Part shown: piece after piece, positions 12,368-32,000 of the stretch
How positions within the stretch are numbered: position 1 is the first letter of the stretch
How the letters are laid out: each line of letters opens with the position of its first letter
Source of the DNA: an uncultured Nitrososphaerota archaeon
Lineage (GTDB): Archaea; Korarchaeota; Korarchaeia; Korarchaeales; Korarchaeaceae
Reading direction: 5' to 3'
Length of the DNA stretch: 32,000 nucleotides
Assembly: GCA_964480775.1 (NCBI GenBank)
Contig: CAYZRF010000009.1
Location: forward strand, 1 to 32,000
Translations under genes and position numbers: made by a program
Notes under the pieces: model-generated
Databases searched by the model: none
Seen by the model: the letters and a program-made list of their open reading frames with translations, nothing else
What the model was told of the DNA's origin: nothing

Positions 12368-12423
12368 TTAAATCGCCTTTTTCCAGAGAAAAAATGAACC
12401 GTTCTTTCGAATTGTTTAGTAAT

Positions 12424-14184
12424 TTAAATGATATCCCACTCTTTCAGGGTGTTGCTGAAGTGTTTTAGACCACGTTCAAAATACTCTTCTTCAAGGATAC
12501 CATGAGGTGTGGGAACCTCCAAGATCCTTCTTGGAGCCTTTAGTTCTGTTGGATCGAACCCCATTTGAATCTTAAGGGAATATCTCTGTTTGTATATGTC
12601 TCTTCCAAGTCTATGGAGTTCTTCAGGAGGAACTGGTATGCCTAAGGGGTCTAGTGCTTCCGACACCGTCTCGACATCGTATATGCCTCTCGCAAACAGA
12701 CAAATTACTAGGCTGTTGAGAACCATTCTCCAACTCTCCTCCTTGATCAATTTTTCGACTAGCTCTTCTGGAGGTGGAAGCTCACTGATTTTTTGATCAA
12801 GGGAGTATCCAGCATTGTCAAGATGACTATGCCTGCCTCCGACAAGAAAGCCGAGGTAAGCTGCGGGTCCTGTGTGATATCCGGGCATTTCATTCCCACC
12901 GAAGAAAAGTGCAAATTCCTCTCCTCCAAAACGTTTAGATGCATTCCTAACTCCTAAAGCCAACTCTCTATAGAACTCGTTTGGCTGTTCTACGACCATT
13001 TTTACGGCCTTAATATATGACTCATAGTTGCCCCATTTTAGTCTAAGGAGAGTTTTTCTCTCGGAAATCAGCCCCCTTTCAAGGGCTTCTGTAGCCCAAG
13101 CAAGGCAAACACCAGTGCTTATGGCGTCTAATCCAACTGACTCGACAAAATGCAGAAGCTTCAAGAAGTCCTCTCTATTTCCTATGCCTAACATGCTGCC
13201 CAGGGCGTATGCCAGCTCATAGTCATACGAGATGAATACAGTCTTGTAGAAGAAGGGTTCATGTGGGTAGGGTTCCCTTAACGCTGCAAGATGAATGCAC
13301 GCAACTGGGCATCCTGAACAAGCAATTCTTCTTCCTAAAACCTTTGAAGCCATCTCTTCTCCGCTTATGTTCTCAGCCTGCTCAAATCTGCCTGATTTAA
13401 GGTTCATAGTTGGTAAGGCACCAAGCTCATTTAACGGCAAGACATTCATCGTGGTTCCTAGTTCGTGGTACTTTTTCATCAACCCAGATCTAACGGCTTT
13501 CTCGAAGATCTTATCGTAAACTTTCCTGTAAGCAACCTTATCTTCTACCTTTAAGGCCTTCCTTCCCGAGATAACGATGGCCTTTAGTTTTTTAGAACCA
13601 AACACGGCTCCCAAGCCTAGTCTTCCGAAATGTCTGAAAGATTCTACCATTACTGATGCGTACCTAACCAGCTTTTCTCCTGCGGGACCTATCCTAAGAA
13701 TGCTTCTGTAACCCGCACTTGGCTCCCTTTCAGCAATCACTCTTCCAACTGTAAAACTGCTTGTCATTCCCCACAATGCACTTGCGTCCCTGAAGTGAAC
13801 CCTGTCCTCGTGAATTGCTAAGTATATGGGAGTTTCGCTAGCCCCTCTTATTACAATAGCCATGTAGCCTGCAAGCTTGATCGAAACGCTACTCCTTCCA
13901 CCCGCATACGATTCGCCTAAGTTCCCAGTAAGAGGACTTTTGAAGAGGGCAACAGTCTTGGATCCAAGAGGATACGCTGCATTGAAGGGGCCTACTGCGA
14001 GTATTATGGAATTCTCTGGACTCAAAGGATCGACTGACGTCATGTTCTCTTCTTTCAGTAGTTGAATTCCTAAACCGATCCCTCCAAGCCATTCCTCTAC
14101 TAAGTCATCTCTCTCTTCGACCCAGCTCGTTCTTCTGTTTAGATCTATGTACAGAACTTTTGAGAAAGGCTTCGGTTCGTACAT
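12424..14184 (-). CDS. aor: Tungsten/molybdopterin aldehyde:ferredoxin oxidoreductase family protein (AOR family)
   Basis: 586 aa. The AOR N-terminal domain reads ILAVGPFNAAYPLGSKTVALFKSPLTGNLGESYAGGR. The cluster/pterin region is RIACSGCPVACIH. The start codon abuts the upstream stop (TGAATG) and is preceded by GGAGGTGA. Confidence 0.9.
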   Translation of the reverse strand: MYEPKPFSKVLYIDLNRRTSWVEERDDLVEEWLGGIGLGIQLLKEENMTSVDPLSPENSIILAVGPFNAAYPLGSKTVALFKSPLTGNLGESYAGGRSSVSIKLAGYMAIVIRGASETPIYLAIHEDRVHFRDASALWGMTSSFTVGRVIAEREPSAGYRSILRIGPAGEKLVRYASVMVESFRHFGRLGLGAVFGSKKLKAIVISGRKALKVEDKVAYRKVYDKIFEKAVRSGLMKKYHELGTTMNVLPLNELGALPTMNLKSGRFEQAENISGEEMASKVLGRRIACSGCPVACIHLAALREPYPHEPFFYKTVFISYDYELAYALGSMLGIGNREDFLKLLHFVESVGLDAISTGVCLAWATEALERGLISERKTLLRLKWGNYESYIKAVKMVVEQPNEFYRELALGVRNASKRFGGEEFALFFGGNEMPGYHTGPAAYLGFLVGGRHSHLDNAGYSLDQKISELPPPEELVEKLIKEESWRMVLNSLVICLFARGIYDVETVSEALDPLGIPVPPEELHRLGRDIYKQRYSLKIQMGFDPTELKAPRRILEVPTPHGILEEEYFERGLKHFSNTLKEWDII

Positions 14185-14619
14185 TCATCTCACCTCCTCA
14201 AGAGCTATCACATTGTAAGGGCAGTAGTTCGCGCAATAGCCACAGTACACGCAGATTATGGGCTTGTTTACCTCTTCATCCCAGAAGATTGCTCCAAAGG
14301 GACATGCTTCAACACAATAACCGCAAGCTATGCATTTTTCGGGCTTAAGGATGACGCCTCCCCCTTTTCTAGGCACGAGAGCATCTTCAGGACATACTTT
14401 TGCACATGGAGGCTCTGAGCAGGCTCTGCAAACCACTACGATAAAGCCTTTCTCCATGCCTCCGGCACTTTTAACGTGTATCGCTGACTTTCCATAACCA
14501 ACTTCAGCGAATCTTCTAGTGCAGGCAAGCATACATGAAGCGCAGCCTACGCATAAATCAGAATCTAGAACTGAGAGGCGTTTCGTCAAATATATCCCAA
14601 GTTTGATGTAAATCCTCAC
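14185..14619 (-). CDS. Polyferredoxin subunit with four [4Fe-4S]-type cysteine motifs (AorA-like electron-transfer subunit)
   Basis: 144 aa with 16 Cys arranged as CVGCASCMLAC, CRACSEPPCAKVCP, CIACGYCVEACP and CVYCGYCANYCP. It is translationally coupled to aor. GTG start; an alternative TTG lies 11 codons downstream. Confidence 0.85.
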   Translation of the reverse strand: MRIYIKLGIYLTKRLSVLDSDLCVGCASCMLACTRRFAEVGYGKSAIHVKSAGGMEKGFIVVVCRACSEPPCAKVCPEDALVPRKGGGVILKPEKCIACGYCVEACPFGAIFWDEEVNKPIICVYCGYCANYCPYNVIALEEVR

Positions 14620-15578: not shown

Positions 15579-16553
15579 CTAGAAAGACCTCGCTGCTTTC
15601 ATAAACGCGTGTATATTCTCCAGAGGTGCAAAATAGGGGACATCGCATCCTGTGCTTACTATTAAGTTTCTGAAATCAGACATTCGTTTCAACATGTCTC
15701 CAACTTCCGTCTCTACCACGCCTTGTGGTCTTGTAGCCAACTTCATAGGAGAGTAATTTCCGAACAGAATTACAGCTTCAGGAACTTTTTCGGCAGCAAC
15801 TCTAAGATCTATATTGTCATCAAAGCTCAGAATGTGCGCTCCTGTCTCTACCATATCTAAAAGCAGGTGATTTGCCCTGCCACATATGTGTAGAGCCCAA
15901 GTGGGCCCTACTTTCTCGATTATCCTCGAAATGTAGGGCTTGGAGAACCTTCTGAAGTCTTCATTTGAGATGGAACTTGACATGGGTTCTGCCAAGACCA
16001 AAAGGTCTGTGATGGGAGCTAGTTCCCTTGCATAGCTCAGAATAACATCTGTTGAAAAGGACATGATTTCATCCAAGAGATCGGGTTTTTTCCTAACCAT
16101 TCTCATCAATCTACCGAATCCAACAAGCTGGCCAGCAAGGGTAAAAGGTCCTGACACGTAGAACCCGACAAACGCGTTTCTTCTAAGTTTTTGCATTAGT
16201 TCAGCTGTTCTAATCATGAGAGGGAGCCTTCCGCTAGTTTTCGGATTGGGAACCTCTAATCCCTCAAGATCGGCGCTTGACTCTAGCTTCAAGTGCTCGA
16301 CCACAGTAGGGGCGCTGTTTTCCTTCATGGAAACTTTTACGCCAACTGATTCGGCTTCTACAGTTAGGTCCATGAGTGGAAATACTATATCAAGACCGAA
16401 TTCCTCAAAAGAAGCTTTCATAAGCTTCATATGGAGCTCTGGCTCTCCAAGACATTCGTTTGCCTTTCCATTTATTAACTTAAGGCTTGGATAAGCTACC
16501 AGCGGTGCTACTAACAACTTCTCGCCCGATAGGACCCGATCTACTATATCCAT
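15579..16553 (-). CDS. UroD-fold methylcobamide:thiol methyltransferase (MT2; MtaA/MtbA-like)
   Basis: 324 aa, uroporphyrinogen-decarboxylase-family fold pattern. The zinc/thiolate-activating triad is present: H-I-C at 15882..15890 (H222, C224) and C303 in STGCDVP (15645..15647). AGGAGGAGG lies 4 nt upstream of the ATG. The gene is 20 nt downstream of the MT1 gene. Confidence 0.8.
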   Translation of the reverse strand: MDIVDRVLSGEKLLVAPLVAYPSLKLINGKANECLGEPELHMKLMKASFEEFGLDIVFPLMDLTVEAESVGVKVSMKENSAPTVVEHLKLESSADLEGLEVPNPKTSGRLPLMIRTAELMQKLRRNAFVGFYVSGPFTLAGQLVGFGRLMRMVRKKPDLLDEIMSFSTDVILSYARELAPITDLLVLAEPMSSSISNEDFRRFSKPYISRIIEKVGPTWALHICGRANHLLLDMVETGAHILSFDDNIDLRVAAEKVPEAVILFGNYSPMKLATRPQGVVETEVGDMLKRMSDFRNLIVSTGCDVPYFAPLENIHAFMKAARSF

Positions 16554-16573
16554 GAAGCCTCCTCCTGATTAGA

Positions 16574-17953
16574 TTAAGGTTTACTTACGCCTAATTCCTC
16601 TAATTCCTTCCAAACCCTTTCATATATGGCGAGCCAGTCTGGAACTGGTTTAAGAGTTACCAGGTTAGTGAGCTCCTTAAAACTGCGTCCCTTTGGAGGA
16701 TCCCTTAACCTTCCCTCGTACTTTGGTAAGAGCTCCTTAACGACATAGTTAACATCGGAGAGCTTCATTCCGGCAGATGCTTTCAATATTTCTGCGCAGA
16801 ACTTATTCTCAAGCCCACTACAATAATTAGGATATTTACATGCAGCTGGTCTTGTTCCGATCACGATAGCAGCCCCAGATACTGCTTCGGCGAGGGAGAT
16901 GCAAGCTGTCTCATACAAGATCATATCAGTTCCTGGACCAGCCACCTGACTGGTTATTCCTAGAACCATTGAGCGGCTGTTTCTAGATTTGGCTTGATTA
17001 GCTACGCTCGTAGCCCAAAGAGCTTCCCTTCCGCAGTTTCCAAAGTATCTTCCATCTAATATTGTGCTCTCTATAACAGTTGGTTGCATTGATGCTGCCT
17101 GTAGGATGTGGGCTGCAATTGCGCCTAAGGCTGCCCCTTCAGGAGGGCCGAAATATCCACCTATAGTTGTCATGTGCCCTGCTTCAATTGAAGTACCTGT
17201 AATCAGGGCAACGGCTACTCTGTGCAATATCCTATGTGGTAGGGTGATGGGCTCAGGTATTAGACATATGGCAAGCGTGCACTCTGGCTCAAATCCCCCT
17301 GGTAGGAAACCTCCGAAGAAGCCATACTCTGTAGGTGCTCCTTCAACCCCAAACACAGGCATTCCAGGCCTTCCAGCCCTATGAAGGGCCTCTTTAACAA
17401 GCTTTGCCTCGTAAAATCCCGCCAGGGTCTCATAGGGCGTCCTTGATCTAACCTCCCTTCCGTGAAGCCTGTCTAGACAGGCACCTAGAAGCATGTCCAC
17501 AACCCTGTATTGGGCGATTGACTGACAGATTGGGACATAAAGCTCCTCTGAGACAGAGAGCCCTAGAGCAGACATGGCTGCTATAGGAGGACTCGGGTCC
17601 TCGGGCACCCTGACCTTGATAGTGATCCTATCCTTTCCCTTTCCCAATGAGACCTCGGATACTGCATTTTTTAGCGCTTCCTCTATCTCCTCTTCGGTGA
17701 ACTTGACAATTCTCTCAGTCTCAGGGCAGAACATTCCCAGCTCAACCGCAAGAGAGAAACCTGCCTCCCAGAACTCATCAGCTAAACTGAGATCCATGTT
17801 TATGGGATTGTTTGGATCGAACGTCCTCTCTAACCCGTGATCCTTTAATACCCTCATGGTTGTTCTGGGAACTAACTTGTAGTCCCACTCCTTTCTTGAG
17901 ATGGGAGGTCCTATTAGGGTCCTGTCCATAACCTCTAACAGCTTCGATACCAT
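16574..17953 (-). CDS. MtmB-family (monomethylamine methyltransferase-like) MT1 protein lacking a pyrrolysine codon
   Basis: 459 aa from ATG 17953, with GGAGGTGA at 17962..17969. The ORF track starts at GTG 17971 and gives 465 aa. The protein is colinear end to end with Methanosarcina MtmB as I recall it: KEWDYKL, CPETERIVKFTEEEIEEAL, HRAGRPGMPVFG, GGYFGPPEG, VAGPGTDMILYE, SGLENKF and KGRSFKELTNLVTLKP. There is no in-frame TAG. Confidence 0.8.
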   Translation of the reverse strand: MVSKLLEVMDRTLIGPPISRKEWDYKLVPRTTMRVLKDHGLERTFDPNNPINMDLSLADEFWEAGFSLAVELGMFCPETERIVKFTEEEIEEALKNAVSEVSLGKGKDRITIKVRVPEDPSPPIAAMSALGLSVSEELYVPICQSIAQYRVVDMLLGACLDRLHGREVRSRTPYETLAGFYEAKLVKEALHRAGRPGMPVFGVEGAPTEYGFFGGFLPGGFEPECTLAICLIPEPITLPHRILHRVAVALITGTSIEAGHMTTIGGYFGPPEGAALGAIAAHILQAASMQPTVIESTILDGRYFGNCGREALWATSVANQAKSRNSRSMVLGITSQVAGPGTDMILYETACISLAEAVSGAAIVIGTRPAACKYPNYCSGLENKFCAEILKASAGMKLSDVNYVVKELLPKYEGRLRDPPKGRSFKELTNLVTLKPVPDWLAIYERVWKELEELGVSKP

Positions 17954-17961
17954 TGAATTGG

Positions 17962-18651
17962 TCACCTCCACTCCCCAACTAGAACGGGCTTCTCAACCTC
18001 CTTTCCTCTTTCCTTCAATAGGTTACAGAGCTTTACAGCACCTTCCGCGTCCTTAGCCCATCCATCTGCCCCTATCTCCTTAGCCCACTCTGGATAGACT
18101 GCTGCTCCACCGACTATGACGTAATATTTGTCTCTGATTCCCATGTCCACTAGTCTCTGAATTACATCCCTCATGTAAAACATGGAAGGGCTCAATAGAC
18201 ACGAAATCGCAATGAAATCAGCCTCCGCCCTCTCAGCTTCCTCCACAAACTTCCTAGGTTCAACGTCAGATCCAAGGTCGAATACCTCATAGCCATTTGC
18301 CCTAAGCAAGGATGCTACTATGTTCTTCCCAATGTCGTGGATATCCCCGTAAATCGTCCCTATGACAACTTTTCCTTTCCTGAATTCCTGAGCTCTTTCA
18401 CTTAACTTTGGAATTATGATGTTTAAGGCTGCATAAGCTGTATCTGCTGCTAATACCAAATCAGGTAGGAATAGCTCTAACTTCTCGTATTTCTCCCCAA
18501 CTGTATCAAGGCCCTTCTTTAATCCCTCATTTATTATCTCTAGCGGGTCTATTCCTGCTTCAAGCGCTCTTTTAGTTGCTTCTTTTATGCCTTCTTCATC
18601 ACCATTAACAACCAAGTCTTTTAATCGATCTAGCAGTTCCTGCTTTCCCAT
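17962..18651 (-). CDS. Cobalamin-binding corrinoid protein (MtmC/MtbC/MtaC-like)
   Basis: 229 aa. It has an N-terminal helical cap domain and a C-terminal B12-binding Rossmann domain. The lower-ligand motif is D-I-H-D-I-G-K-N (18328..18345), followed by LG and GGA segments. Confidence 0.9.
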   Translation of the reverse strand: MGKQELLDRLKDLVVNGDEEGIKEATKRALEAGIDPLEIINEGLKKGLDTVGEKYEKLELFLPDLVLAADTAYAALNIIIPKLSERAQEFRKGKVVIGTIYGDIHDIGKNIVASLLRANGYEVFDLGSDVEPRKFVEEAERAEADFIAISCLLSPSMFYMRDVIQRLVDMGIRDKYYVIVGGAAVYPEWAKEIGADGWAKDAEGAVKLCNLLKERGKEVEKPVLVGEWR

Positions 18652-21637: not shown

Positions 21638-22456
21638 ATGTCTAGATTTGAAAGCTTTTACAAGCTATTTAACACAAAAAAGCCAATCATAGGAATGGTC
21701 CATCTGCCGCCTCTCCCAGGCTCACCCCGATACAACGGGGATATGGAAGGTTTGATCAAAAGGGCCGTCTCAGATGCTAGGGCTCTTGAGGATGGGGGGG
21801 TAAATGGACTGATTGTGGAGAACTATGGCGATAAGCCTTTTAGAAGAGATAAAGTCGGACCCGAAACAGTTTCTGCAATGACTTTAGTTCTGAAGAGCGT
21901 GTTAGAGGCAACATCTCTGCCAGTCGGAGTTAATGTGCTTAGAAGCGATTGTGTCTCTGCTCTAGCTATAGCTTCAGTAACTGGAGCAAAGTTCATCAGG
22001 TGTAATGTTTTTACCGATACCTTGGTCACGGATCAAGGCATTATTCAGCCCTGTGCATGGGAAGTCTTGAACTTAAGGGCGTTTCTCAAATCTAAGGTCA
22101 TGGTGTTCGCTGATGTTCTTAGCAAACATGCTAGGCCCTTAGTCCACCTGACAATAGAGGAATCAGCAAGAGCTGCCGCCTATAGAGGAATGGCCGACGC
22201 CATAATAGTAACTGGAACGGAGACCGGGGTTAGTCCGGATCCTGAGAGGGTTAAGAGGATTAAGGAGGCTGTTTCGGATGTTCCGCTCCTAATTGGAAGT
22301 GGTCTCAACCCAGATAACGCTGTAACACTGTTAAAACATGCAGATGGGGCTATCGTTGGCACATATTTCAAGGAAAAAGGTTTTGTAGAAAATAAAGTCG
22401 ACACGGAGAGGGTAAGAACCCTCATAAAAACCATAAAGATGCTCGATCATAGGTGA
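21638..22456 (+). CDS. BtpA/SgcQ-family TIM-barrel protein
   Basis: 272 aa. The family-typical N-terminus is KPIIGMVHLPPLPGSPRY. GLIVENYGD and the C-terminal GADGAIVGT-like segment (HADGAIVGTYFK) are also present. Confidence 0.8.
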   Translation: MSRFESFYKLFNTKKPIIGMVHLPPLPGSPRYNGDMEGLIKRAVSDARALEDGGVNGLIVENYGDKPFRRDKVGPETVSAMTLVLKSVLEATSLPVGVNVLRSDCVSALAIASVTGAKFIRCNVFTDTLVTDQGIIQPCAWEVLNLRAFLKSKVMVFADVLSKHARPLVHLTIEESARAAAYRGMADAIIVTGTETGVSPDPERVKRIKEAVSDVPLLIGSGLNPDNAVTLLKHADGAIVGTYFKEKGFVENKVDTERVRTLIKTIKMLDHR

Positions 22457-22460
22457 GTGA

Positions 22461-23816
22461 ATGGATCTCCTGAATGGAGACTGGTGGAAAGCTGGCGCTG
22501 GCCCTGGAGGTTTGTGTCTAAATGGTCTAAAGGCCATCATTACTATGGAACCCTCAAATCCGATTATTTGGAATGGTCACATTTGTGTCGAGGATGGATT
22601 GATAAAGAGCATAGGTGTTGGTAAGGGACCAAGGGCAGAGGTAGAAATAGAGACTCATGGGAAGGTAGCTATTCCTGGCATGATAGATCTCCACTCCCAT
22701 TCTACTCAATCTTTTCTAAGGGGTGTATTCGATGAGATATGCCTCATGGAGTGGTTAAACGAAACCGATGTATCCTATTCGAGAGCAAAAAGAGAATTGC
22801 TTGAAATATCATCTACGATCTCTTTTCTCGAAAGATTGAAGGGAGGAGTCACCACAGTAGTGGATATGGAGCCCTTTCCCGAGATAATTGCTCGAGCTTC
22901 TGAAAAGATTGGTTTGAGGACCGAAATCTCCGTTCTGATGGCTGATACCCCAGAACTTCCTAGTCAAGAGGTTTCATCGCTAGAACAGGAGTTGAAAAAG
23001 GCTAAAAGTGCTATACAAAAGTTTCAGAGAAATCAAAAGTTATGGGTATCTCTAGCTCCCGTAGGTTTTCCTGCAGCCTCAAATGAACTTTTTAAGAGAT
23101 CTGCAGAACTCGCAAAGGAAAAAGGACTAAGGCTCCATACTCATGTTGCTGAGAGCAGAATAAACGCAAACCTATGCAAGAGAAGAAATAGGAGGAGCGA
23201 AATTGAGCTTCTAGAGGATCTTGGATTCTTAGGTCCAAAAACTCAACTTGCCCATGCTATCTGGATAAGCGAGACGGATATCGAGACTCTTTCAAAATAT
23301 AGAACTGCAGTCGTTCATTGCCCTTCAAGCAACCTGAAGCTCGCAGCAGGCGTGTCGAAAGTACCTGAGATGATAAAAATGGGAGTTAAAGTTGGACTTG
23401 GGCTTGATGGAGCAGCTAGCAACTCCAGCCAAGATATGTTCCAAGAGATGAGAATCGCATCAACATTACATAAAGGGGTTAAAGGAAATCCAAAAGCCGT
23501 GAAAGCCGAAGAAGCACTTAATATGACGACTGTACAAGCTGCAAAAATACTTAGACTTGAAAAAACGTTAGGAAAGATATCTCCTGGCTATTGGGCTGAT
23601 TTTTCTCTAATTGATGTGTCACAACCCAGGTACTTACCAATAGAGGCCATAAGGTCGCACATAGTTTATTCAGCCCAAGCTTCCGATGTTTTCGGTGTAA
23701 TAGTTGGGGGAGAAGTTCTTGTTTGGGAAAGAACGCACACCAGTTTTGACGAAACTTCCCTCTTAAAGAGAGCAGGTGAACTTTTCTCAGAGTTCCTGAA
23801 CGGTGTGCTCCTTTGA
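22461..23816 (+). CDS. Metal-dependent amidohydrolase of the MtaD/SsnA/chlorohydrolase (nucleobase/nucleoside deaminase-like) group
   Basis: 451 aa. Metal ligands: IPGMIDLHSHS (HxH), RLHTHVAES, LAHAIW and GLDGAASN. It starts 4 nt after the btpA stop. Confidence 0.85.
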   Translation: MDLLNGDWWKAGAGPGGLCLNGLKAIITMEPSNPIIWNGHICVEDGLIKSIGVGKGPRAEVEIETHGKVAIPGMIDLHSHSTQSFLRGVFDEICLMEWLNETDVSYSRAKRELLEISSTISFLERLKGGVTTVVDMEPFPEIIARASEKIGLRTEISVLMADTPELPSQEVSSLEQELKKAKSAIQKFQRNQKLWVSLAPVGFPAASNELFKRSAELAKEKGLRLHTHVAESRINANLCKRRNRRSEIELLEDLGFLGPKTQLAHAIWISETDIETLSKYRTAVVHCPSSNLKLAAGVSKVPEMIKMGVKVGLGLDGAASNSSQDMFQEMRIASTLHKGVKGNPKAVKAEEALNMTTVQAAKILRLEKTLGKISPGYWADFSLIDVSQPRYLPIEAIRSHIVYSAQASDVFGVIVGGEVLVWERTHTSFDETSLLKRAGELFSEFLNGVLL

Positions 23817-24925
23817 TCTCAAGGAAAAAGTTTACGTCACTGTACATTTCGACTTTTCTATTGACAACAGGCGTGGGAGCAACTATTCCAGCCCTAGCTC
23901 AAAAGGTCTACCTAATATCTTCATCAGACGAACTTGTCTCGCTAGTGATTGGAACTTGGGGTCTCTCTTACACAATATTGAGCGCTCTTTCTGGTTATTT
24001 AATTAACTTTTTTGGAAGAAAAGGGGTTTCTTTCCTTGGTTTGCTAGGTGCGTCTGTTTCTGGTATTATAATGGAGTTATCTAACTCTGTATCTGCGCTT
24101 GCCTCATCAAGATTCCTTACAGGGGCTTCTGAAGCTCTTGTCCTTAATTCTTTCATCACTATAACCTCTTTTGAATCCTTAGAAAAGAGAGAAGGCTGTC
24201 TTGGTCTACTGTATGCTTCTATGGGTCTTGGATTGTTCTCGGGACCTTTTTTCTACTCTTACTTCTTGGGATCAGATCCCAAAAAAGGCTTTTTCTTGTT
24301 GATTCTTCTTCCTCTTATGTCAATACTCCTTCTTCCATCATATCAAGAGGGATTTTCAATGGATAGGTCGTCTCACCCTAACTTAAGAAAAGTAGCTATC
24401 CCTTTAACTGTGTCTCTACTAATAGGGGCATTGGAAGGATATTTTCAAGGGTCGGGAGTGAGCCTTGTTAGAGCTTGGGGGCATGATCCCTCGGATTTTG
24501 GAAAGATTTTGTCCCTCTATTTTGCGTTTAGCATTGTCGTCCAAGGCACGATGCCCTTCTTGACCAAAGTTTTTAGGGCGGATAGCTGGGCAGTTAGCTT
24601 TTCTATATGGACAATCTTCACATCGAGCCTGCTCATCGAGTTAAGGTCCAAAAAATTTCCTTTCTTATTCTCTGGCTTATTTGGGGCTTCTATTGCCGTT
24701 TGTAGCGTAGCTTTAACTTCATTATTATCTGAATTAACTACAGAGAAGGAAAGAGCATTTGCTATAGGGATGTCGAGTTCAACTTATTCACTGGGCTACT
24801 TTATTTCTCCTATTTTCGTCTTTATATTCAAAAATCAGGTTTTTGGAGTGTTCTTTATGTCTATACTACTTTTTCTCTTAGCAGCAATCATTAGATTTCC
24901 GTTAAGACCTTCTAACGAGATTTAA
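23813..24925 (+). CDS. MFS-type transporter
   Basis: 370 aa with 10-12 hydrophobic segments. The TTG start overlaps the amidohydrolase stop (TTGA). A motif-A-like loop is GYLINFFGRKG. Confidence 0.7.
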   Translation: MISRKKFTSLYISTFLLTTGVGATIPALAQKVYLISSSDELVSLVIGTWGLSYTILSALSGYLINFFGRKGVSFLGLLGASVSGIIMELSNSVSALASSRFLTGASEALVLNSFITITSFESLEKREGCLGLLYASMGLGLFSGPFFYSYFLGSDPKKGFFLLILLPLMSILLLPSYQEGFSMDRSSHPNLRKVAIPLTVSLLIGALEGYFQGSGVSLVRAWGHDPSDFGKILSLYFAFSIVVQGTMPFLTKVFRADSWAVSFSIWTIFTSSLLIELRSKKFPFLFSGLFGASIAVCSVALTSLLSELTTEKERAFAIGMSSSTYSLGYFISPIFVFIFKNQVFGVFFMSILLFLLAAIIRFPLRPSNEI

Positions 24926-25736
24926 GAAATTTCCGAATTACTTCTGCGGCCTCGTCAACCGTCAAGAACTTTTTTGGGAATTTCCCAACCTTGAGGTTTA
25001 GCTCCACAACCTGTGGAGGTCTTATGAAAGCCTTTCGCAAAGTCTCATAGTCATATAAGACTTCTTCTACCGATCCATCCTTCAAGATCCTACCATCTGC
25101 CATCAAAATAACTCTTTTAGCAGTTCTGGCAACGAATCTCATGTCATGAGTTATTACTACAACAGTTTTACCTTCTTCATTGAGTCTTATGCATAGATCG
25201 CTTAGAACCTTTCTTCCAACATGATCTTGACCTGTTGTTGGTTCGTCTAAAACGAACACCTCAGGATTCATCGACAATATTGAGGCAACCGTTAGAAGCT
25301 TCCTCTTTCCGAAATCTAAATCATAAGGATGCATTTCTTCAGTTCCTTCCAATCCAACAACCTTCAAAGCCTCTTTTACTCTTCTATCCACCTCTTCCTC
25401 ACTTAAGTCCAAGTTTCTAGGACCATATGCAACTTCTTCGTAAACAGTACTCATAAATATCTGGTGAGCTGGGTTTTGGAACACATATCCGACCTTCGCT
25501 ACTATTTTATGGGTTGGGGTCTCTTTAGTGTCCATTCCTGCAACAACAACTCTACCCTTCGTAGGTTTTAAGAGTCCATTGAAATGTTTCGCCAAAGTTG
25601 TCTTTCCTCCACCATTCTGGCCTATCAAAGCAAGGATCTCTCCAGGATGGATCTCTAGGTTAATCTCTTTTAACGCAACGACTTCTGGACTGTATTCGAA
25701 CCAAACGTCCTCAACCCTAATTATTGGTTCAGTCAT
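24912..25736 (-). CDS. ECF transporter ATPase subunit (EcfA2-like) with a degenerate ABC signature
   Basis: 274 aa. Walker A is GQNGGGKTT, the Q-loop VFQNP, Walker B VFVLDEPTTGQD and the H-loop ITHDM. The position of LSGGQ reads LDFGK (25305..25319). The start overlaps the upstream stop (TAATG). Confidence 0.9.
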   Translation of the reverse strand: MTEPIIRVEDVWFEYSPEVVALKEINLEIHPGEILALIGQNGGGKTTLAKHFNGLLKPTKGRVVVAGMDTKETPTHKIVAKVGYVFQNPAHQIFMSTVYEEVAYGPRNLDLSEEEVDRRVKEALKVVGLEGTEEMHPYDLDFGKRKLLTVASILSMNPEVFVLDEPTTGQDHVGRKVLSDLCIRLNEEGKTVVVITHDMRFVARTAKRVILMADGRILKDGSVEEVLYDYETLRKAFIRPPQVVELNLKVGKFPKKFLTVDEAAEVIRKFLKSR

Positions 25737-26590
25737 TAACTTAACGCCTCCTTATAGAGATCTATTGCTTCATCTAGCGTTATTGGGTAATCTTCTCTTG
25801 ATACCCCCAACTCATTTCTGAGAAGGTGCGTGAGTTCAGTTACCGAAGGCGGATCTACCCCTATCTCCTTAAGTTTCTCTACGCTTGACAAAACTCTCTT
25901 TCCCTCACCTTTTAATACCATTTCCCCATCATATAGCGCTATAATCTCATCTGCAAATGTTGCAAGTTCCTCTATCTCATGCTCAGCGACTACTATCGTT
26001 TGACCTCCAGCAGCAAGTTCCTTAACAGTTTCGAAAACCTCAAACTTTCCTATGGGATCTAGTTGGGCAGTTGGTTCATCAAGTACCAGTATCTCGGGTC
26101 TTACTGCTAAAACGGTTGCTATGGCTAGCCTTTGTTGCTGTCCTCCAGAGAGTTCGTAAGGTGATCTTCCCTCCAGACCTTTTAATCCAACCGTTTCTAT
26201 AGCTTCTTTGACCCTTTTATCAATCTCTTCTTTAGGAAATCCGAGCATGGCAAGACCAAAAGCAACTTCTTCCTCTAATGTAGTTGCAACTCCCGATAGC
26301 TGATCTAGTGGATCCTGAAATACGATTCCTACCTTCGTCGAGAGCTCCGCTATGGTGTGTTTAAGGGTATCCATTCCAGCGACGATAACTTTGCCAGACA
26401 TTCTGCCGCCAAAGAACTGAGGCACAATTCCGTTTAGAGAAAGGCATAAAGTTGTCTTTCCAGCTCCGTTTGGACCTATTATCCCTAAAACTCCTCCTCT
26501 CTTAACTTTGAAGGAGATGTGCTTAAGCACATTCTCCCTCGTAGGGTAGGAATAAGTGACATCTTCAACAATGACCGGATACTCTTCCAA
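25736..26590 (-). CDS. ECF transporter ATPase subunit (EcfA1-like)
   Basis: 284 aa. Walker A is GPNGAGKTT, the Q-loop VFQDP, the signature is a canonical LSGGQQQRL, Walker B is ILVLDEPTAQLD and the H-loop is AEHE. Confidence 0.9.
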   Translation of the reverse strand: MEEYPVIVEDVTYSYPTRENVLKHISFKVKRGGVLGIIGPNGAGKTTLCLSLNGIVPQFFGGRMSGKVIVAGMDTLKHTIAELSTKVGIVFQDPLDQLSGVATTLEEEVAFGLAMLGFPKEEIDKRVKEAIETVGLKGLEGRSPYELSGGQQQRLAIATVLAVRPEILVLDEPTAQLDPIGKFEVFETVKELAAGGQTIVVAEHEIEELATFADEIIALYDGEMVLKGEGKRVLSSVEKLKEIGVDPPSVTELTHLLRNELGVSREDYPITLDEAIDLYKEALS

Positions 26591-26613
26591 TCTAATCGCC
26601 TCTTCCCATAAAA

Positions 26614-27564
26614 CTATCTCCCATAAACAACTCTGGAAACTAGGAGATCAATGAAGGCCTTACCATCAAGGTCAACGCAGACATTGGCATTCGCAGGTCT
26701 CTTAAAGGATTCCGGAAGCCATTCTCTAAGATCTGCCAGAGTTTCGCCGCGCGTTAAAGTACCGCAGACTTCAACATCTACATGAAGCCTCTTAAACTTG
26801 AAGATTTCTGGCTTTATCATATAGCTTAGGGCCATTGGATCGTGCATAGGAACTGGTTCTATAAGATAGACGAATCTTCTCAGCATCTTTTGTATTAACT
26901 CTCCCGTCTTAGTTCCTGCCTTGCCTATCTCTTCATAGAGGGATTTGCTTATCCCCGCATCTGGCCTCATGGTAACATCAAGACCGAAGGCGTAGATCTC
27001 TGCTCCTGAATTAAAGACTATTTTCGCTGCCAAAGGATCTGTAGCAATGTTGAACTCGGCTCTTGGACTTTCATTTCCATATCCCCAAGGAGTTGTTGCA
27101 TAGGCTCCACCCATTATAACGATAGAAGACAGTTTATTGGCAATATTGGGTTCAAGAAGCAATGCCATTGCAACATTGCTAAGAGGTCCAGTTGCTACGA
27201 TACTTATCTCCTTTGGACCACTGTCCATAACTTTCTCTCTTATGAAGTCAACAGCATGGCCCTTCGCAGGTTTCATACGGGGTTCTGGGAGATTAACGTC
27301 TCCAAGTCCATCTTGGCCGTGAACAAATTCAGCTGTCCTAAGTTCTCCAAACATAGGTCCTTTCATACCAGCAAATACTGGGACTTTCTCTAATCCCATA
27401 AATTCAAGCATTTTGAGGGCATTTTTCGTGGTTAATTCAAGAGGAACATTTCCTCCTACCGTTGTGATTCCTAAAATCTCCAATTCTGGAGATCTGCAAG
27501 CAAGCATTATAGCGATAGCATCGTCTATTCCAGGATCCATGTCCAGAATTACTTTCTTACCCAT
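26614..27564 (-). CDS. Nucleoside hydrolase (inosine-uridine preferring, IUNH family)
   Basis: 316 aa. The N-terminal Ca-binding fingerprint is ILDMDPGIDDAIAI (DxDxxxDD). ATGPLSN and the overall length are typical of the family. Confidence 0.9.
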   Translation of the reverse strand: MGKKVILDMDPGIDDAIAIMLACRSPELEILGITTVGGNVPLELTTKNALKMLEFMGLEKVPVFAGMKGPMFGELRTAEFVHGQDGLGDVNLPEPRMKPAKGHAVDFIREKVMDSGPKEISIVATGPLSNVAMALLLEPNIANKLSSIVIMGGAYATTPWGYGNESPRAEFNIATDPLAAKIVFNSGAEIYAFGLDVTMRPDAGISKSLYEEIGKAGTKTGELIQKMLRRFVYLIEPVPMHDPMALSYMIKPEIFKFKRLHVDVEVCGTLTRGETLADLREWLPESFKRPANANVCVDLDGKAFIDLLVSRVVYGR

Positions 27565-27566
27565 AT

Positions 27567-28415
27567 TTATCCCGCTACCACATATTTGAGATGAACAATG
27601 GGTGAATTCCCGTATTTCAAATAGATATACACAACTAAAATGGTCAAAGCTGCCATTCCAGCCATGAAAACGAAATCTTCCATTTGAAAAGTTATCTCCT
27701 TCAAAGGAGTCTTTTTAGTGGGGGCGGTAAAACCTCTCGACTCTAAAGTTATTGCTCTCGTCTGAACTCTATTCAATGAAGACAGAGTTAAAGGAACTAC
27801 CAAAGCTATGTAATTCTTGAACTTCTTTACAAGACCCACATCGGTCTTAAGACCTCTAGACACTTGAGCCTGAAAGATTGTTCCAACCTCATCTGCTAAA
27901 ATTGGAATGAGTTGGACTGCTGCAGTAAACATGTAAGCCAGCTTATACGACATTTTCATTTTCGTTATGGTAGAAGTTATCTCCGCCAGTGGAGTAGTCA
28001 AGTAGAAAAGCATCGCTGAACCTATGCAAACTCCCACCCTTGCAGGCCAGGTTATTGCATACGCTAATCCTTCATAATAAAAGGAAAATTCTCTGCCAAA
28101 TAACTTAATCGTAAAGAGAACTGTTTCATTACCCTGAAAACCTGCTGAAGGTGACAAGATAATTATCCCAACTAATATCCACGGAATCACTATTACGGCT
28201 TCAGTTAGATAGATCTGTTTGTGTATCTTTGCAATTCTTGCGCACATAAGTAGTGCGACAAGCAGCACTGAGACAAGTACATAATCATAGAAAAGGTAGG
28301 CTATTATAGATATCCACCAGAAAAAGATGAATTTTGTCCTTCCATCGAGCCGATGAAAAAAGGTGTTGCCTGCTGTATAAGCTCTCTTCAATAATAAGCT
28401 TCCTACAGCACTCAA
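27567..28415 (-). CDS. ECF transporter transmembrane T component (EcfT/CbiQ family)
   Basis: 282 aa, polytopic. The two coupling-helix x-R-G motifs are FQAQVSRGL and TLESRGF. Its stop lies 2 nt before the nucleoside hydrolase ATG. Confidence 0.85.
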   Translation of the reverse strand: MSAVGSLLLKRAYTAGNTFFHRLDGRTKFIFFWWISIIAYLFYDYVLVSVLLVALLMCARIAKIHKQIYLTEAVIVIPWILVGIIILSPSAGFQGNETVLFTIKLFGREFSFYYEGLAYAITWPARVGVCIGSAMLFYLTTPLAEITSTITKMKMSYKLAYMFTAAVQLIPILADEVGTIFQAQVSRGLKTDVGLVKKFKNYIALVVPLTLSSLNRVQTRAITLESRGFTAPTKKTPLKEITFQMEDFVFMAGMAALTILVVYIYLKYGNSPIVHLKYVVAG

Positions 28416-28458
28416 CTACATCACCAAAAAAGAGGAAAGGGGGAATTTATATAAACAA

Positions 28459-29049
28459 TTATCTCTTTGCCAAGACGAAGCGCTTAGGAACCCTGCTTGC
28501 GACGATAAGAGCTAAGATCCATGAGATTGATTTGTCTATTAGCTCAGTCGCCACATTCTGAAGATAGTATGCCAGAAGCTGATTCCCGGTGGCACTCAAA
28601 ACACCAAAGTAAACTATTGCTGTTGGTTTCGCTAGAGGACCGGCACCAAACGTGTAGAGCCCTATTGCTGTACATTGGATTGAGTAAACAAAACCTAACC
28701 ATAGGAAGGCAGGAATGAGCTTCAATGGTTTCTTTAGGTCATCCCAACCGAGTTTCATGAACATAAAGGACCATATGGCTATTGCTATGTTACATGTCCC
28801 CCAGATCCAAGCTGGTAGACCCCACACAGTCATAGCCATAATAAGGTTGTAAAGGAAACCTCCTATTGCTCCAACCCACACACCCGAGATCAGTGTTCCC
28901 AACATCGTAGCCCAGGTGTCTCCCCAAATGGGTAGTTTGAGAGTCTCTACTATTACCCCTGTCACGTAGTTCAGTCCTGCAATTACTGGAATCATTACTA
29001 GAGCCATTATCTTTGCCCCAGTAGGCACAACTTCCCTACTTTCTGACAT
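28459..29049 (-). CDS. ECF transporter substrate-capture S component, substrate unassigned
   Basis: 196 aa with about 6 TM. LKLPIWGDTWATMLGTLISGVWVGAIGGFLYNLI matches the l-P-l-y-l-D-t-i-G-T...G...G...N pattern common to ECF S components. It lies immediately upstream of ecfT. Confidence 0.65.
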   Translation of the reverse strand: MSESREVVPTGAKIMALVMIPVIAGLNYVTGVIVETLKLPIWGDTWATMLGTLISGVWVGAIGGFLYNLIMAMTVWGLPAWIWGTCNIAIAIWSFMFMKLGWDDLKKPLKLIPAFLWLGFVYSIQCTAIGLYTFGAGPLAKPTAIVYFGVLSATGNQLLAYYLQNVATELIDKSISWILALIVASRVPKRFVLAKR

Positions 29050-29095
29050 ACCGCATCATCTTCCTCGTTTCGTTAGTTGGCTAACCTGTCGCCTG

Positions 29096-29107
29096 ATATA
29101 ATATTAA
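29096..29107 (-). promoter_or_regulatory. TATA-like box upstream of the ECF S-component gene
   Basis: The minus strand reads ttaatattatat about 50 nt upstream of ATG 29049. It is preceded by the run tttcttttttgg (oligo-T core at 29126..29135), which could terminate or attenuate transcription coming from udp. Confidence 0.25.
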
Positions 29108-29153: not shown

Positions 29154-30044
29154 TTAAACTATCAAACCACCTTTGTCCAATAGAACAATAGCTTCTAAAG
29201 CCACTCTTATCATGTTCTTTTCCCCTGATATAGCCTTACCTTCTTTCGTTTCAGTTGCTTGAACCGCATATTCCCTAATTCCTTCGGCTGGTTCCTCTCC
29301 GAATTCATCAACAACATTTACTATGCATCCTGCCTTTATTCCTCTGAGCCTTCCTACCGTCATAAGTGTTGCTGCTTCCATTTCAGCAGCTATAACCCCC
29401 ATTTTGTGCCAAAATTGATCCATTTTTCTTATTTTACCTGAATAAAGCGCATCTTCACTTCTAGTGATTCCTACCCAGTATTTGAAGCCTATTTCGTCTT
29501 TGAGCGAATCTGCTGCTCTAACTAGAGCCACATATACTTCTGGATCTGGAACTGCTGGATATCGGACTGGAACGTACTGCTTGCTAGTTCCATCCTCTCT
29601 TACGACTCCTTGGGATATAACGAGGTCCCCTATTTTGATACCTGGCTGAAGAGCCCCACAGCTTCCTACACGAATTATTACTTTTGCCCCCACGTTTGCA
29701 AGCTCCTCTACTGCTATAGCGGTGCTAGGTCCACCAATTCCTGATGATGTGGCTGATACTCGAATTCCCTTGTACGTTCCAGTTATTGTTCTGAACTCCC
29801 TGTTGAATGCAATTTGCTTGTAATCATCTAACAGCTCACCTATCCTTAGCACCCTTCCTGGATCACCAGGCATCAACACGTATTTAGCGACATCTCCCTT
29901 CCTGCACAAAATATGTGGCTGAAGCGTTCCTTCCATAGATTCTGAAGGTTCATGTAATTCTAATAAACTTGTTTGAGATTCCAGATTATGAAATCTCTTT
30001 TCACGAAAAACTATAAACACCTCCTTGTTGCACTCACTCTCCAC
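29154..30044 (-). CDS. udp: Uridine phosphorylase (PNP/UDP family 1); N-terminal 36 codons doubtful
   Basis: VLMPGDPGRVLRIGELL, SSGIGGPSTAIAVEELANVGAKVIIRVGSCGALQP and AAEMEAATLMTV are colinear with E. coli Udp. The ORF-track start is GTG 30044. The conserved part begins right after ATG 29936 (MEGTLQPHILCRKGD). Confidence 0.85.
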   Translation of the reverse strand: MESECNKEVFIVFREKRFHNLESQTSLLELHEPSESMEGTLQPHILCRKGDVAKYVLMPGDPGRVLRIGELLDDYKQIAFNREFRTITGTYKGIRVSATSSGIGGPSTAIAVEELANVGAKVIIRVGSCGALQPGIKIGDLVISQGVVREDGTSKQYVPVRYPAVPDPEVYVALVRAADSLKDEIGFKYWVGITRSEDALYSGKIRKMDQFWHKMGVIAAEMEAATLMTVGRLRGIKAGCIVNVVDEFGEEPAEGIREYAVQATETKEGKAISGEKNMIRVALEAIVLLDKGGLIV

Positions 30045-30082: not shown

Positions 30083-31021
30083 TTATCCACGAAAACTACT
30101 TTGTTTCTCCTTAAGAAAGGCCTCAAGCTCTTCCAAGGTTGGAAGGGCTTCTTGGGCTCCTATCTTAGTGGTTGCTAGAGCTCCAGCATGATTCGCCATA
30201 AAAACAGCTTCGTTTAGGTTTTTTCCTGAAGCCAAAGCAAATGCAAGAGCACCACAAAAGGCATCACCAGCACCTGTTGTATCAACGGCTTTAACACTAA
30301 CTCCTGGGATAATTTTATGCTCATTCTTATCAACAAGCAGGGCTCCTTTTTTCCCAAGCGTTATAACTACGGCGTTTATACCAAATCCTAATAATTTTCT
30401 TCCCGCCTCTATAGCAGAATCTAAATCTTTTACAGGTATTCCAGTGAGAATTTCTGCTTCTACCTCGTTTGGAACAATTACATCCACTGATTCTAATAGC
30501 TCCTTAGGTAAGGACCTTGCGGGGGCAGGATTCAGAATTACCCTAAGGCCAATCTGTTTTGCGAGCGTAGCAGCATATTGAACAGTTTCTGTTGGAATCT
30601 CTAATTGAAGAAGGAGCACAGATGTCCTTTTCATTAGATCCTTTATCCTATTAACATCTTCAGGTGAACACCGAGAATTGGCTCCAGAGGCTACAGCTAT
30701 CAAATTCTTTCCAGCCTGATCAACCATTATAAGAGCGACTCCTGTATGTGCATTTTTGTCAATTGTTAGATAATCCACATTTACGCCTTTATCCTTGAAG
30801 TTCTTCAGAAGTATTCTTCCAAAATCATCGTCTCCTACCCTACCAACAAAATAAGACTCTGCTCCCAACTTTGAAGCTGCGACTGCTTGATTTGCACCTT
30901 TTCCTCCTGGAGACATCTTAAATTTCCCGCCAATTACAGTTTCTCCAACTACTGGGAGTTTTCTTAGTTTTACAATGAGATCCATGTTAGCAGAACCTAC
31001 TACAACAATCCTAGGACCCAA
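30083..31021 (-). CDS. rbsK: Ribokinase (PfkB family)
   Basis: 312 aa with a TTG start preceded by GGTGG. It is colinear with E. coli RbsK: VVGSANMDL, GGKGANQAVAA, NPAPA, PNEVEAE and TTGAGDAF. Confidence 0.9.
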   Translation of the reverse strand: MGPRIVVVGSANMDLIVKLRKLPVVGETVIGGKFKMSPGGKGANQAVAASKLGAESYFVGRVGDDDFGRILLKNFKDKGVNVDYLTIDKNAHTGVALIMVDQAGKNLIAVASGANSRCSPEDVNRIKDLMKRTSVLLLQLEIPTETVQYAATLAKQIGLRVILNPAPARSLPKELLESVDVIVPNEVEAEILTGIPVKDLDSAIEAGRKLLGFGINAVVITLGKKGALLVDKNEHKIIPGVSVKAVDTTGAGDAFCGALAFALASGKNLNEAVFMANHAGALATTKIGAQEALPTLEELEAFLKEKQSSFRG

Positions 31022-31232: not shown

Positions 31233-32000
31233 ATGGCTGATATCCTTATCAGACGTGGAATTGTAGTTCCCATGACTGAGAGAAAGATCTTGAAAGAAAC
31301 TTCAATTGCGGTAAGAGAAGGAAGAATTGTTGCTATGGGACCAGACGACACCATTAGAAGGGAATTTCCATCGGATATAGAGATAGATGCGTCCGATCAC
31401 ATAGTAATACCTGGTCTCATCAATACTCACACCCATCTCGCAATGACATTATTCAGAGGGGTGATGGATGGAGTTTCAGGCATGGAATGGCTCGACAGAG
31501 CGTGGTCCATAGAATCAAATCTCACTAGAGACGATGTATACTGGGGATCCTTGTTAGGTTGCTTAGAGATGATAAAAGGAGGAACCACCTGTTTTGCGGA
31601 TCACTACTTCTTCATGGATACAGTGGTAGACGCTGTTAAGGAGTCCTTTATTAGAGCTGCCTTAGCTCAAGCAATAATTGAAGAAGGAGGGCCTATGGGC
31701 ATAGATACCACGCTTGAGGGAAGTTTAAACTTTGCAAAGCGATATGATGGAGCGGCAAAGGGAAGGATAACTTGCATGCTTGGTCCACACTCTGCTTACA
31801 CTTGTAGTCCGGATCTATTGAAGGAAGTAAGAGGACTATCAGAGGAAACAGGTCTAAGGGTTCACATACACTTATCTGAAGGTATGTCTGAGTTAAGGAT
31901 TGTAAAAGAAAAGTATAAAACAACTTCAATAAGGTTACTCAACCAAATAGGACTTCTTAACCCAAAATTGCTGGCAGCTCATGTAGTCTTTGCCGATAAA
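31233..32000 (+). CDS. MtaD/DadD-like amidohydrolase (MTA/adenosine-type deaminase family), N-terminal 256 codons; continues past the right edge
   Basis: Absent from the ORF track because it is open-ended. ATG 31233 reads MADILIRRGIVVPMTERKILKETSIAVREGRIVAMGPDD..HIVIPGLINTHTHLAMTLFRG..GGTTCFADHYF..RVHIHLSEG, with no stop before 32000. The HxH and HxxE metal-ligand motifs are present. Confidence 0.8.
   Translation, partial: MADILIRRGIVVPMTERKILKETSIAVREGRIVAMGPDDTIRREFPSDIEIDASDHIVIPGLINTHTHLAMTLFRGVMDGVSGMEWLDRAWSIESNLTRDDVYWGSLLGCLEMIKGGTTCFADHYFFMDTVVDAVKESFIRAALAQAIIEEGGPMGIDTTLEGSLNFAKRYDGAAKGRITCMLGPHSAYTCSPDLLKEVRGLSEETGLRVHIHLSEGMSELRIVKEKYKTTSIRLLNQIGLLNPKLLAAHVVFADK

Follow-up and report, generated by a model that had tools for sequence, protein, structure and literature searches.

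The Locus and Its Operon Architecture

The stretch of DNA considered here, called the window, comprises positions 1 to 32,000 (forward strand) of contig CAYZRF010000009.1 from assembly GCA_964480775.1, an uncultured archaeon filed under Nitrososphaerota in GenBank and under Korarchaeaceae in GTDB. On the minus strand of the window lies an operon of five genes that encodes an ECF (energy-coupling factor) importer, i.e., an integral-membrane S component, a T scaffold and two ATPases (A1 and A2), together with an IUNH-family nucleoside hydrolase (NH) (Table 1). This cluster is real and strongly conserved, and its gene context points to nucleosides as the cargo.

All junctions were read directly from the sequence, with the spacers counted in nucleotides (nt). 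Whereas S and T are 43 nt apart, only 2 nt ("at") lie between the stop codon of T (TAA) and the hydrolase start codon, ATG, the TAG of the hydrolase is followed by 23 nt including GGAAGAGG and then by the TTG of A1, and A1 and A2 overlap as TAATG (−1 nt). The table of open reading frames (ORFs) and the junctions thus agree with the gene order S, T, hydrolase, A1, A2 and with the spacers of the original prediction. The unit that it delimited (24912–29049) does hold five real genes, but this span is too narrow, as the genes of a ribokinase and of a phosphorylase are its immediate upstream neighbours on this strand.

A TATA-like element, TTAATATTATAT, is found about 47–58 nt 5' of the ATG of S, at 29107–29096, where such a box had been predicted for the unit. 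This putative promoter is compatible with the predicted leader of about 25 nt, and a Shine-Dalgarno-like GAGGA occurs upstream of S at 29066–29062. The element is identical in the closest relative (locus L001), an identity that has little power because the two loci are about 90% identical overall. The spacer between S and T, which is 96% identical in L001, contains in the stretch 28421–28455 another TATA-like box, TTTATATAAAT, which is a good one by archaeal standards. This box is located about 35 nt ahead of the start codon of T, and a run of six T comes after it. The spacer may act as an internal promoter and/or as a partial terminator splitting the expression of S from that of T-NH-A1-A2. 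A string similar to this box, CTTTTTTGGTGA, is also present 3' of the phosphorylase gene, at about 29132–29121. From the boxes upstream of S and of T, transcription is predicted to start at about 29075 and about 28424, respectively.

Table 1. Genes and sequence elements of the ECF cluster and of its flanks, in order of position in the window.
Feature	Position	Strand	Remarks
BtpA-family TIM barrel	21638–22456	+	first gene of convergent operon; Pfam/NCBIfam
Deaminase-like amidohydrolase	22461–23816	+	second gene of convergent operon; Pfam/NCBIfam
MFS transporter	23813–24925	+	third gene of convergent operon; Pfam/NCBIfam
ATPase A2	24912–25736	−	274 aa; PF00005
ATPase A1	25736–26590	−	284 aa; TTG start; PF00005
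IUNH-family nucleoside hydrolase (NH)	26614–27564	−	316 aa; ATG start; PF01156
T component (EcfT/CbiQ scaffold)	27567–28415	−	282 aa; TTG start; PF02361
T6 run in S-T spacer	28426–28431	−	read from sequence
Second TATA-like box TTTATATAAAT in S-T spacer	28445–28455	−	read from sequence; putative function
S component	28459–29049	−	196 aa; ATG start
TATA-like element TTAATATTATAT upstream of S	29096–29107	−	read from sequence; putative promoter
Uridine-phosphorylase-like nucleoside phosphorylase (NP-I family)	29154–30044	−	PF01048 at 141 bits
Ribokinase	30083–31021	−	first gene of seven-gene same-strand array; TIGR02152, PF00294
Second deaminase-like amidohydrolase (TRZ/ATZ, MtaD/DadD type)	31233–32000	+	open frame by translation; partial, runs off window end

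The ECF Module

The T component matches PF02361 (CbiQ) at 102.3 bits for a cut-off of 25, over profile positions 2–213 of 216, and carries two SRG motifs (QVSRGL and LESRGF) at the positions expected for the coupling helices. Among the 31 non-redundant loci of the survey described below, its gene adjoins that of S in 28. Both ATPases are of the ECF type, their best NCBIfam models being TIGR04520 (ECF_ATPase_1) for A1 and TIGR04521 (ECF_ATPase_2) for A2, with scores of 241.7 and 255.2 bits that stay below the equivalog cut-offs (315 and 330, respectively). With S, a CbiQ-family T and two such ATPases in one operon, the system is a group I module, i.e., the dedicated ECF importer that had been predicted.

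The two ATPases differ in their ABC signature. That of A1 is canonical (LSGGQ), whereas in A2 it is replaced by LDFGK, while Walker A, Walker B and the H-loop remain intact. Among solved structures, EcfA2 4mki_B (1.6e-53) comes closest to A2, and its LSGGQ aligns to LDFGK. This degeneracy is kept in all archaeal loci (L001–L033, consensus LD[YF]G[KQ]MK) and takes the form LT..EKK in bacterial sister operons (L038–L044). Such conservation implies one non-canonical ATP site and suggests, from sequence, that the four-gene module is a distinct ECF lineage possessing such a site. The degenerate signature of A2 could offer a natural system for the study of asymmetric ATP use in ECF motors.

The S component was not assigned to any Pfam family at E ≤ 0.01. 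Its sole NCBIfam match is NF045596 ("CD3073 family putative ECF transporter S component"), with 54.5 bits for a cut-off of 180. This model is matched by all 24 archaeal members (E from 1e-14 to 6e-18), none of which comes near the cut-off. PF06177 (QueT) is matched by none of these 24 members, even at E ≤ 10, and PF12822 (QrtT) only marginally (the window protein scores 8.2 bits, the cut-off being 30.7; best E-value among the members, 3.7e-4). In the same way, the family profile matches no sequence of a solved structure in the Protein Data Bank (PDB), even at E ≤ 10.

Structure prediction brings clearer indications. The AlphaFold model, built from the family alignment, has a pLDDT of 88.7 and a pTM of 0.85, and the DSSP listing shows about six membrane-spanning helices. 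The top 11 Foldseek matches in the PDB are all ECF S components (ThiT, RibU, BioY), with TM-scores of 0.46–0.62 and probabilities of 0.80–1.00, but with E-values of only 0.02–0.7. Because the model is confident and its top matches are S components only, the protein is, by its predicted fold, a genuine ECF S component, and its family stands apart from the characterised vitamin families. Like the vitamin S components with solved structures (ThiT, RibU, BioY, FolT and HmpT), it has a predicted six-helix fold and T/A/A' partners; unlike them, it shows no similarity to their sequences at the threshold given above, and its gene context points to nucleosides. The proposed separation from the well-characterised vitamin families is therefore borne out by the Pfam, NCBIfam and PDB profile searches, none of which clusters the protein with a known family.

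This family, for which Pfam currently has no model, would be an addition to the known S families. Its homologues (n = 66) share 47–94% identity, and the whole archaeal clade forms a single cluster at 50% identity. The residues N27, Y28, D44-T45-W46, Y67-N68, W76, W81, W83, N87, E169, D172 and K173 of S are invariant. A profile search of 1.84 billion representative proteins retrieved 549 relatives at E ≤ 1e-3, of which 18 at E ≤ 1e-30.

The Nucleoside Hydrolase

The hydrolase matches PF01156 at 315.3 bits (cut-off, 34.2; E = 7e-94) over profile positions 1–296 of 297. Its closest solved structures are the CU-NH 6ba0 (8e-61), the IU-NHs of Leishmania and Crithidia (1ezr and 1mas) and RihA, and its best matches are general CU/IU nucleoside hydrolases; it stays below the cut-off of all NCBIfam equivalogs (UriH, RihC and RihA). 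In the 27 transporter-linked hydrolases, the residues D8, D10, D14, D15, N39, H82, E170, N172, H241 and D242 reach a conservation of at least 95%, and the complete catalytic set of group I is retained throughout. These residues, which include the DxDxxxDD motif and the His-Asp pair, align with the motifs of the Crithidia IU-NH. By sequence, the enzyme is thus a nucleoside hydrolase of group I (His-type). Since the catalytic motif starts at residue 8, there is no room for a signal peptide and the enzyme is predicted to be cytoplasmic. An assignment of base specificity from the alignment with Crithidia IU-NH was dropped, the base-pocket loop (Y225/Y229/R233) being gapped.

Conservation of the Linkage in Archaea and in Bacterial Sister Operons

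A scan of 185,579 species, with one genome per species, led to 34 loci carrying the S family of the window. Their hosts are Bathyarchaeia, Caldarchaeales/"Ca. Caldarchaeum", Nitrososphaeria, Thermofilaceae/Infirmifilum, Baldrarchaeota and unclassified Thermoproteota, and the nearest relative is a metagenome-assembled genome from the Guaymas Basin, whose S protein is 94% identical. A hydrolase gene of the IUNH family adjoins the S, T or A genes in 25 of the 34 loci, belonging to at least five archaeal lineages. The linkage is therefore not unique to this genome and exceeds by far what chance would produce.

This association is found in five arrangements. The order of the window, S-T-NH-A1-A2, is shared with L001 and L003. 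In Caldarchaeales and Nitrososphaeria, the hydrolase gene is divergent from S-T-A1-A2, while in L015 and L021 it lies co-directionally upstream of S, as (deaminase)-NH-S-T-A1-A2. In L023, L024 and L027, A2-A1 is divergent from S-T-NH. Finally, most Bathyarchaeia show NH-A2-A1 divergent from S-T, the latter being followed in some cases by a phosphorylase or kinase gene. A linkage maintained through so much reshuffling of the gene order indicates selection. Thus, the insertion of the hydrolase between T and A, on which the original prediction laid stress, has a restricted distribution (the window, L001 and L003), and it is the linkage itself that is conserved across archaeal orders.

Unsupervised clustering of the neighbours within 7 kb, performed on the 31 non-redundant loci, revealed that the recurrent ones are all related to nucleosides. 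They are the hydrolase (24/31), kinases of the ribokinase/PfkB type (15/31), uridine-phosphorylase-like enzymes (11/31) and deaminase-like amidohydrolases (10/31). In Thermofilaceae loci without hydrolase (L005, L009, L018 and L020), phosphorylase and deaminase genes are found directly beside S. In Bathyarchaeia loci, the PfkB kinase beside the phosphorylase scores best against ribose-1-phosphate kinase, which fits a catabolism of the ribose moiety. Furthermore, the divergences of S and of the hydrolase are correlated (rho 0.52; 0 of 2000 permutations), as would be expected from co-inheritance.

A related association occurs in bacteria. A sister S family (PF12822) of at least 685 proteins, with 32% identity to the archaeal S, includes members whose source names are Mediterraneibacter gnavus, other Clostridia and Treponema. 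It scores 117 bits on NF045596, compared with the 54.5 bits of the window protein. Its operons read LacI/GntR regulator, S, T, A, A, PRAI-like isomerase, PfkB kinase, IUNH hydrolase and HAD phosphatase (loci L038, L041, L042, L043 and L044, with the S genes P0066, P0181, P0169, P0088 and P0091); one of the contigs ends right after the PfkB gene, the hydrolase being there outside the visible sequence. These NF045596/P0066-like sisters are the nearest sequence relatives of the archaeal system and also possess a dedicated ECF module, an IUNH hydrolase, a PfkB kinase and a degenerate A2, but only the bacterial operons add the PRAI-like isomerase, the HAD phosphatase and the LacI/GntR regulator. 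Because they carry both the hydrolase and the sugar kinase, the link of these enzymes with the S lineage predates the archaeal clade. The PRAI-like gene hints at an N-ribosyl or Amadori-type compound as the cargo of the sister operons.

Salvage Genes Flanking the Operon

The ribokinase encoded upstream of the ECF operon passes the equivalog cut-off of TIGR02152 (372.2 bits for 299.65). Between it and S, the phosphorylase stays below the cut-off of TIGR01718 for uridine phosphorylases (214.2 bits for 280.3). Its clear membership of PF01048 designates it, more broadly, as a nucleoside phosphorylase. The ORF as listed starts at a GTG and includes 36 extra N-terminal residues that lie outside the family models. 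The true start is probably an internal ATG at 29936, since the family models match only from residue 44 onwards and L001 has a shorter orthologous ORF.

The second deaminase-like amidohydrolase is divergent from the ribokinase, an arrangement also seen in L001. Its best NCBIfam match is NF004701 (255 bits) and it reaches 171 bits for 5'-deoxyadenosine deaminase; all its scores are below cut-off because the protein is partial. On the other side, a convergent operon (21638–24925) encodes the BtpA-family protein, the first amidohydrolase and the MFS transporter, with spacers of 4 nt and −4 nt, and at its 3' end shares 14 nt with A2. This operon is a probable accessory to the ECF cluster, most clearly so for the deaminase. 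With deaminase-like amidohydrolases encoded on both flanks, deaminase paralogues bracket the cluster.

Proposed Function and Alternatives

We consider it probable that the dedicated group I module of the window takes up ribonucleosides, a cargo deduced from gene context. The S component would capture ribonucleosides outside the cell; powered by the two ATPases, A1 and A2, it would then topple within the T scaffold and set the nucleoside free in the cytoplasm. There, the co-expressed group I hydrolase would split it into ribose and base, and the upstream ribokinase would convert the ribose to ribose-5-phosphate. The uridine-phosphorylase-like enzyme could provide a parallel, phosphorolytic route to ribose-1-phosphate, while the flanking deaminase-like amidohydrolases could process amino-bases or amino-nucleosides. 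Genes for import, cleavage and processing of ribose and base, found together, point to a nucleoside scavenging or catabolic island. The nucleoside cargo first proposed thus remains the most economical reading of a neighbourhood made of hydrolase, ribokinase, phosphorylase and deaminases. By contrast, the queuosine-type precursor that had been mentioned as an example is unlikely, as PF06177 is not matched, a preQ1 riboswitch is absent, neither tgt nor a radical-SAM gene is among the neighbours, and the hosts are archaeal. Nicotinamide riboside, the other example, stays a minor possibility.

The coupling of ECF import with nucleoside cleavage has a precedent, contrary to what was initially thought. 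In Clostridioides difficile, preQ1, queuine and the nucleoside queuosine are all taken up by way of QueT/QrtT, an ECF S component whose gene lies between queK, encoding an IUNH-family queuosine hydrolase, and queL (PMC11130926; bioRxiv 10.1101/2023.12.05.570228). A nucleoside-transporting ECF system had therefore already been characterised (PMC11130926), and QueT-QueK is a described case of uptake-cleavage coupling (PMC11130926; bioRxiv 10.1101/2023.12.05.570228). The likeness to the window is real, with an ECF S gene beside an IUNH-family hydrolase gene and a proposed cytoplasmic cleavage of the imported nucleoside. However, QueT/QrtT uses a shared housekeeping ECF module (group II) whereas that of the window is dedicated (S, T, A1 and A2). 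The C. difficile cluster includes a radical-SAM queuine lyase and serves tRNA modification, whereas the partners in the window are ribokinase, phosphorylase and deaminases. The S family differs too, since PF06177 is absent and PF12822 remains below threshold, and the hosts are archaeal. Because of this different S family, of its dedicated module, of its partners and of its hosts, the window system works like QueT-QueK but is not a member of it; its S family and its predicted cargo class are new. Full-text literature searches brought up no account of ECF import of nucleosides in general or of this S family, although the latter may figure under an earlier catalogue name, and nothing was found on "CD3073".

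One alternative is that the cargo is a specialised micronutrient riboside, such as nicotinamide riboside, a 7-deazaguanine (preQ0/queuosine-like) nucleoside or 5'-deoxy/5'-methylthio-adenosine, and that the hydrolase serves to release the useful base from it. Micronutrients are the typical cargo of ECF S components, and QueK, which frees the base from queuosine, illustrates such a use of the hydrolase. In the same way, nicotinamide riboside is cleaved by IUNH-family and PNP-family enzymes in yeast, and the flanking amidohydrolases score best against models of 5'-deoxyadenosine/MTA-type deaminases (MTA, 5'-methylthioadenosine). Nevertheless, we regard this alternative as unlikely. None of the 24 family members matches PF06177 and the similarity to PF12822 is only marginal. 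Rfam has no match in the window and identified only two tRNAs in 10 related loci, hence no riboswitch, be it of the preQ1 or of another type. Among the neighbours of the 31 loci, no tgt-like, radical-SAM, nicotinamidase or NadR-type gene or cluster is recurrent, whereas a bona fide ribokinase and ribose-phosphate kinases do recur. This recurrence of kinases implies that the flux of ribose must matter. For queuosine-type compounds, it should be added that archaea, to which the hosts belong, have archaeosine in place of queuosine.

It could also be proposed that S binds free ribose, a free nucleobase or an unrelated solute, and that the hydrolase is only co-located as a part of a common pentose/nucleoside regulon. 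Indeed, no partner is more generic than ribokinase, which would serve imported ribose equally well, and loci L014 and L017 are devoid of hydrolase. This proposal appears quite improbable, as the hydrolase is the commonest non-transporter neighbour (24/31 loci), is often located inside the operon with a spacing of 2 nt, and, requiring an intact N-glycosidic bond, would be pointless beside an importer of ribose or base. Furthermore, in hydrolase-less loci, a phosphorylase, i.e., another nucleoside-cleaving enzyme, is found beside S. As for a meaningless adjacency, left by a hydrolase gene that landed by chance in a transporter operon, the exact T/A1 position is indeed restricted to the window, L001 and L003, but the linkage in 25 of 34 loci, over several archaeal orders and five arrangements, and likewise in the bacterial sister family, effectively refutes it, and we give it almost no credence.

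Some points nevertheless weigh against import of ribonucleosides at large. Micronutrients are what S components are mainly known for, and import of a bulk nutrient would be atypical. The cargo is deduced from gene context, and the same holds for the breadth of nucleosides that would be accepted and for the purpose, which could be carbon and energy or base salvage. The gaps in the base-pocket loop of the hydrolase leave its preference for purine, pyrimidine or special ribosides unreadable from the sequence. In addition, the hydrolase gene is not adjacent in L009, L014, L017 and L018 despite enough visible flank, the neighbours being mostly unrelated genes in L014 and L017, and all relatives are metagenome-assembled genomes. 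Lastly, simple vertical descent would also lead to the correlated distances of S and hydrolase; since shared descent gives the same signal, this correlation is weak evidence and not an independent proof.

Relation to Other Nucleoside Uptake Systems and Possible Significance

Uptake of nucleosides for salvage is achieved by ABC importers of the BmpA/PnrA and RnsBACD/NupABC types and by the carriers NupC/NupG. The proposed job of the window system is the same, but these systems rely on a soluble or lipoprotein receptor, or on a secondary carrier, instead of an integral-membrane S component. We know of no nucleoside transporter characterised in Thermoproteota, although no literature search was aimed at this point. 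Detrital biomolecules are presumed to be part of the diet of lineages such as Bathyarchaeia, Caldarchaeales and Thermofilaceae. If the system does import ribonucleosides, it would provide a testable entry route for carbon and bases derived from nucleic acids into these poorly understood archaeal lineages. It would also extend the role of ECF systems from the capture of micronutrients to nutrient scavenging. A comparable logic is known from the ribose utilisation systems (RUS) of Bacteroides, where uptake, nucleoside hydrolases and ribokinases are combined to scavenge the ribose of nucleosides (bioRxiv 10.1101/574913). These RUS have, however, the outer-membrane, SusC/D-type architecture of the polysaccharide utilisation loci of Bacteroidetes and are devoid of an ECF module.

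The operons of Thermoproteota archaea and those of gut Firmicutes/Spirochaetes could together represent a subclass of dedicated ECF importers that has no name yet. Such a subclass would be specialised in ribosides taken up as bulk nutrients and not as vitamins, and would be defined by two features, an S family outside the coverage of Pfam and a built-in asymmetric ATPase pair with an A2 that has lost LSGGQ. The S-like domain would moreover be reused as a membrane ligand sensor fused to K+-channel pores. This broader proposal is tentative and we hold it as a possibility only.

S-like Domains Outside the Archaeal Clade

Fusions of the K+-channel type are found among the closest relatives of S outside the clade. 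These proteins of 426–566 aa (P0192, P0193, P0195, P0196, P0200, P0201, P0207, P0208, P0215, P0216 and P0218) have best E-values from 1e-31 to 1e-37, the weakest being about 1e-19. In P0192, P0193, P0195, P0200 and P0201, Pfam reveals an N-terminal K+-channel pore (PF07885) and a C-terminal S-like domain, with a STAS domain in one of them; the other members have the same length and an S-like domain that is likewise C-terminal. From this domain organisation, these fusions may be ligand-gated channels. The P0195 fusion is located on a short contig (locus L047) and P0186 is an orphan S-like gene devoid of T or A genes nearby; the context of neither gave a clue to the cargo.

One protein, P0055, has "[Eubacterium] cellulosolvens" as its source label, yet it groups with P0052–P0063. 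P0054, the sampled member of this group, is carried by an archaeal-type contig, apparently the Bathyarchaeia locus L028. The bacterial label of P0055 probably results from mis-binning or contamination.

Other Features of the Window and of Related Loci

BtpA/SgcQ-family TIM barrels recur near hydrolase or deaminase genes. Besides that of the window (21638–22456), they are encoded in two Bathyarchaeia loci, L004 (14–631) and L006 (6129–6935), directly downstream of the hydrolase gene in the latter. Six Bathyarchaeia loci (L028, L030, L031 and L035–L037) encode a protein of about 340 aa, without Pfam or NCBIfam match, whose gene has that of the phosphorylase on one side and that of a second PfkB kinase on the other (e.g., L035, 11817–12839, minus strand). 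In L017, a type I phosphodiesterase/nucleotide pyrophosphatase (PF01663) is encoded at 12339–13736 on the minus strand, about 1.2 kb beyond A2.

A scan for tRNA genes found none. Elsewhere in the window, about 24 kb from the ECF cluster, a second uridine-phosphorylase-like NP-I enzyme (TIGR01718, 229 bits) is encoded next to a HAD-IIA phosphatase of the NagD/phosphoglycolate-phosphatase type, this pair of genes occupying 4599–5348 and 5840–6646 on the plus strand. An aldehyde:ferredoxin oxidoreductase and a ferredoxin are encoded at 12424–14619. The guanine-cytosine content climbs to 0.50 at 17–18 kb, and a methyl-transfer cluster at 15579–18651 (minus strand) encodes an MtmB-like methyltransferase, a corrinoid (B12-binding) protein and a URO-D/MtaA-like methyltransferase.

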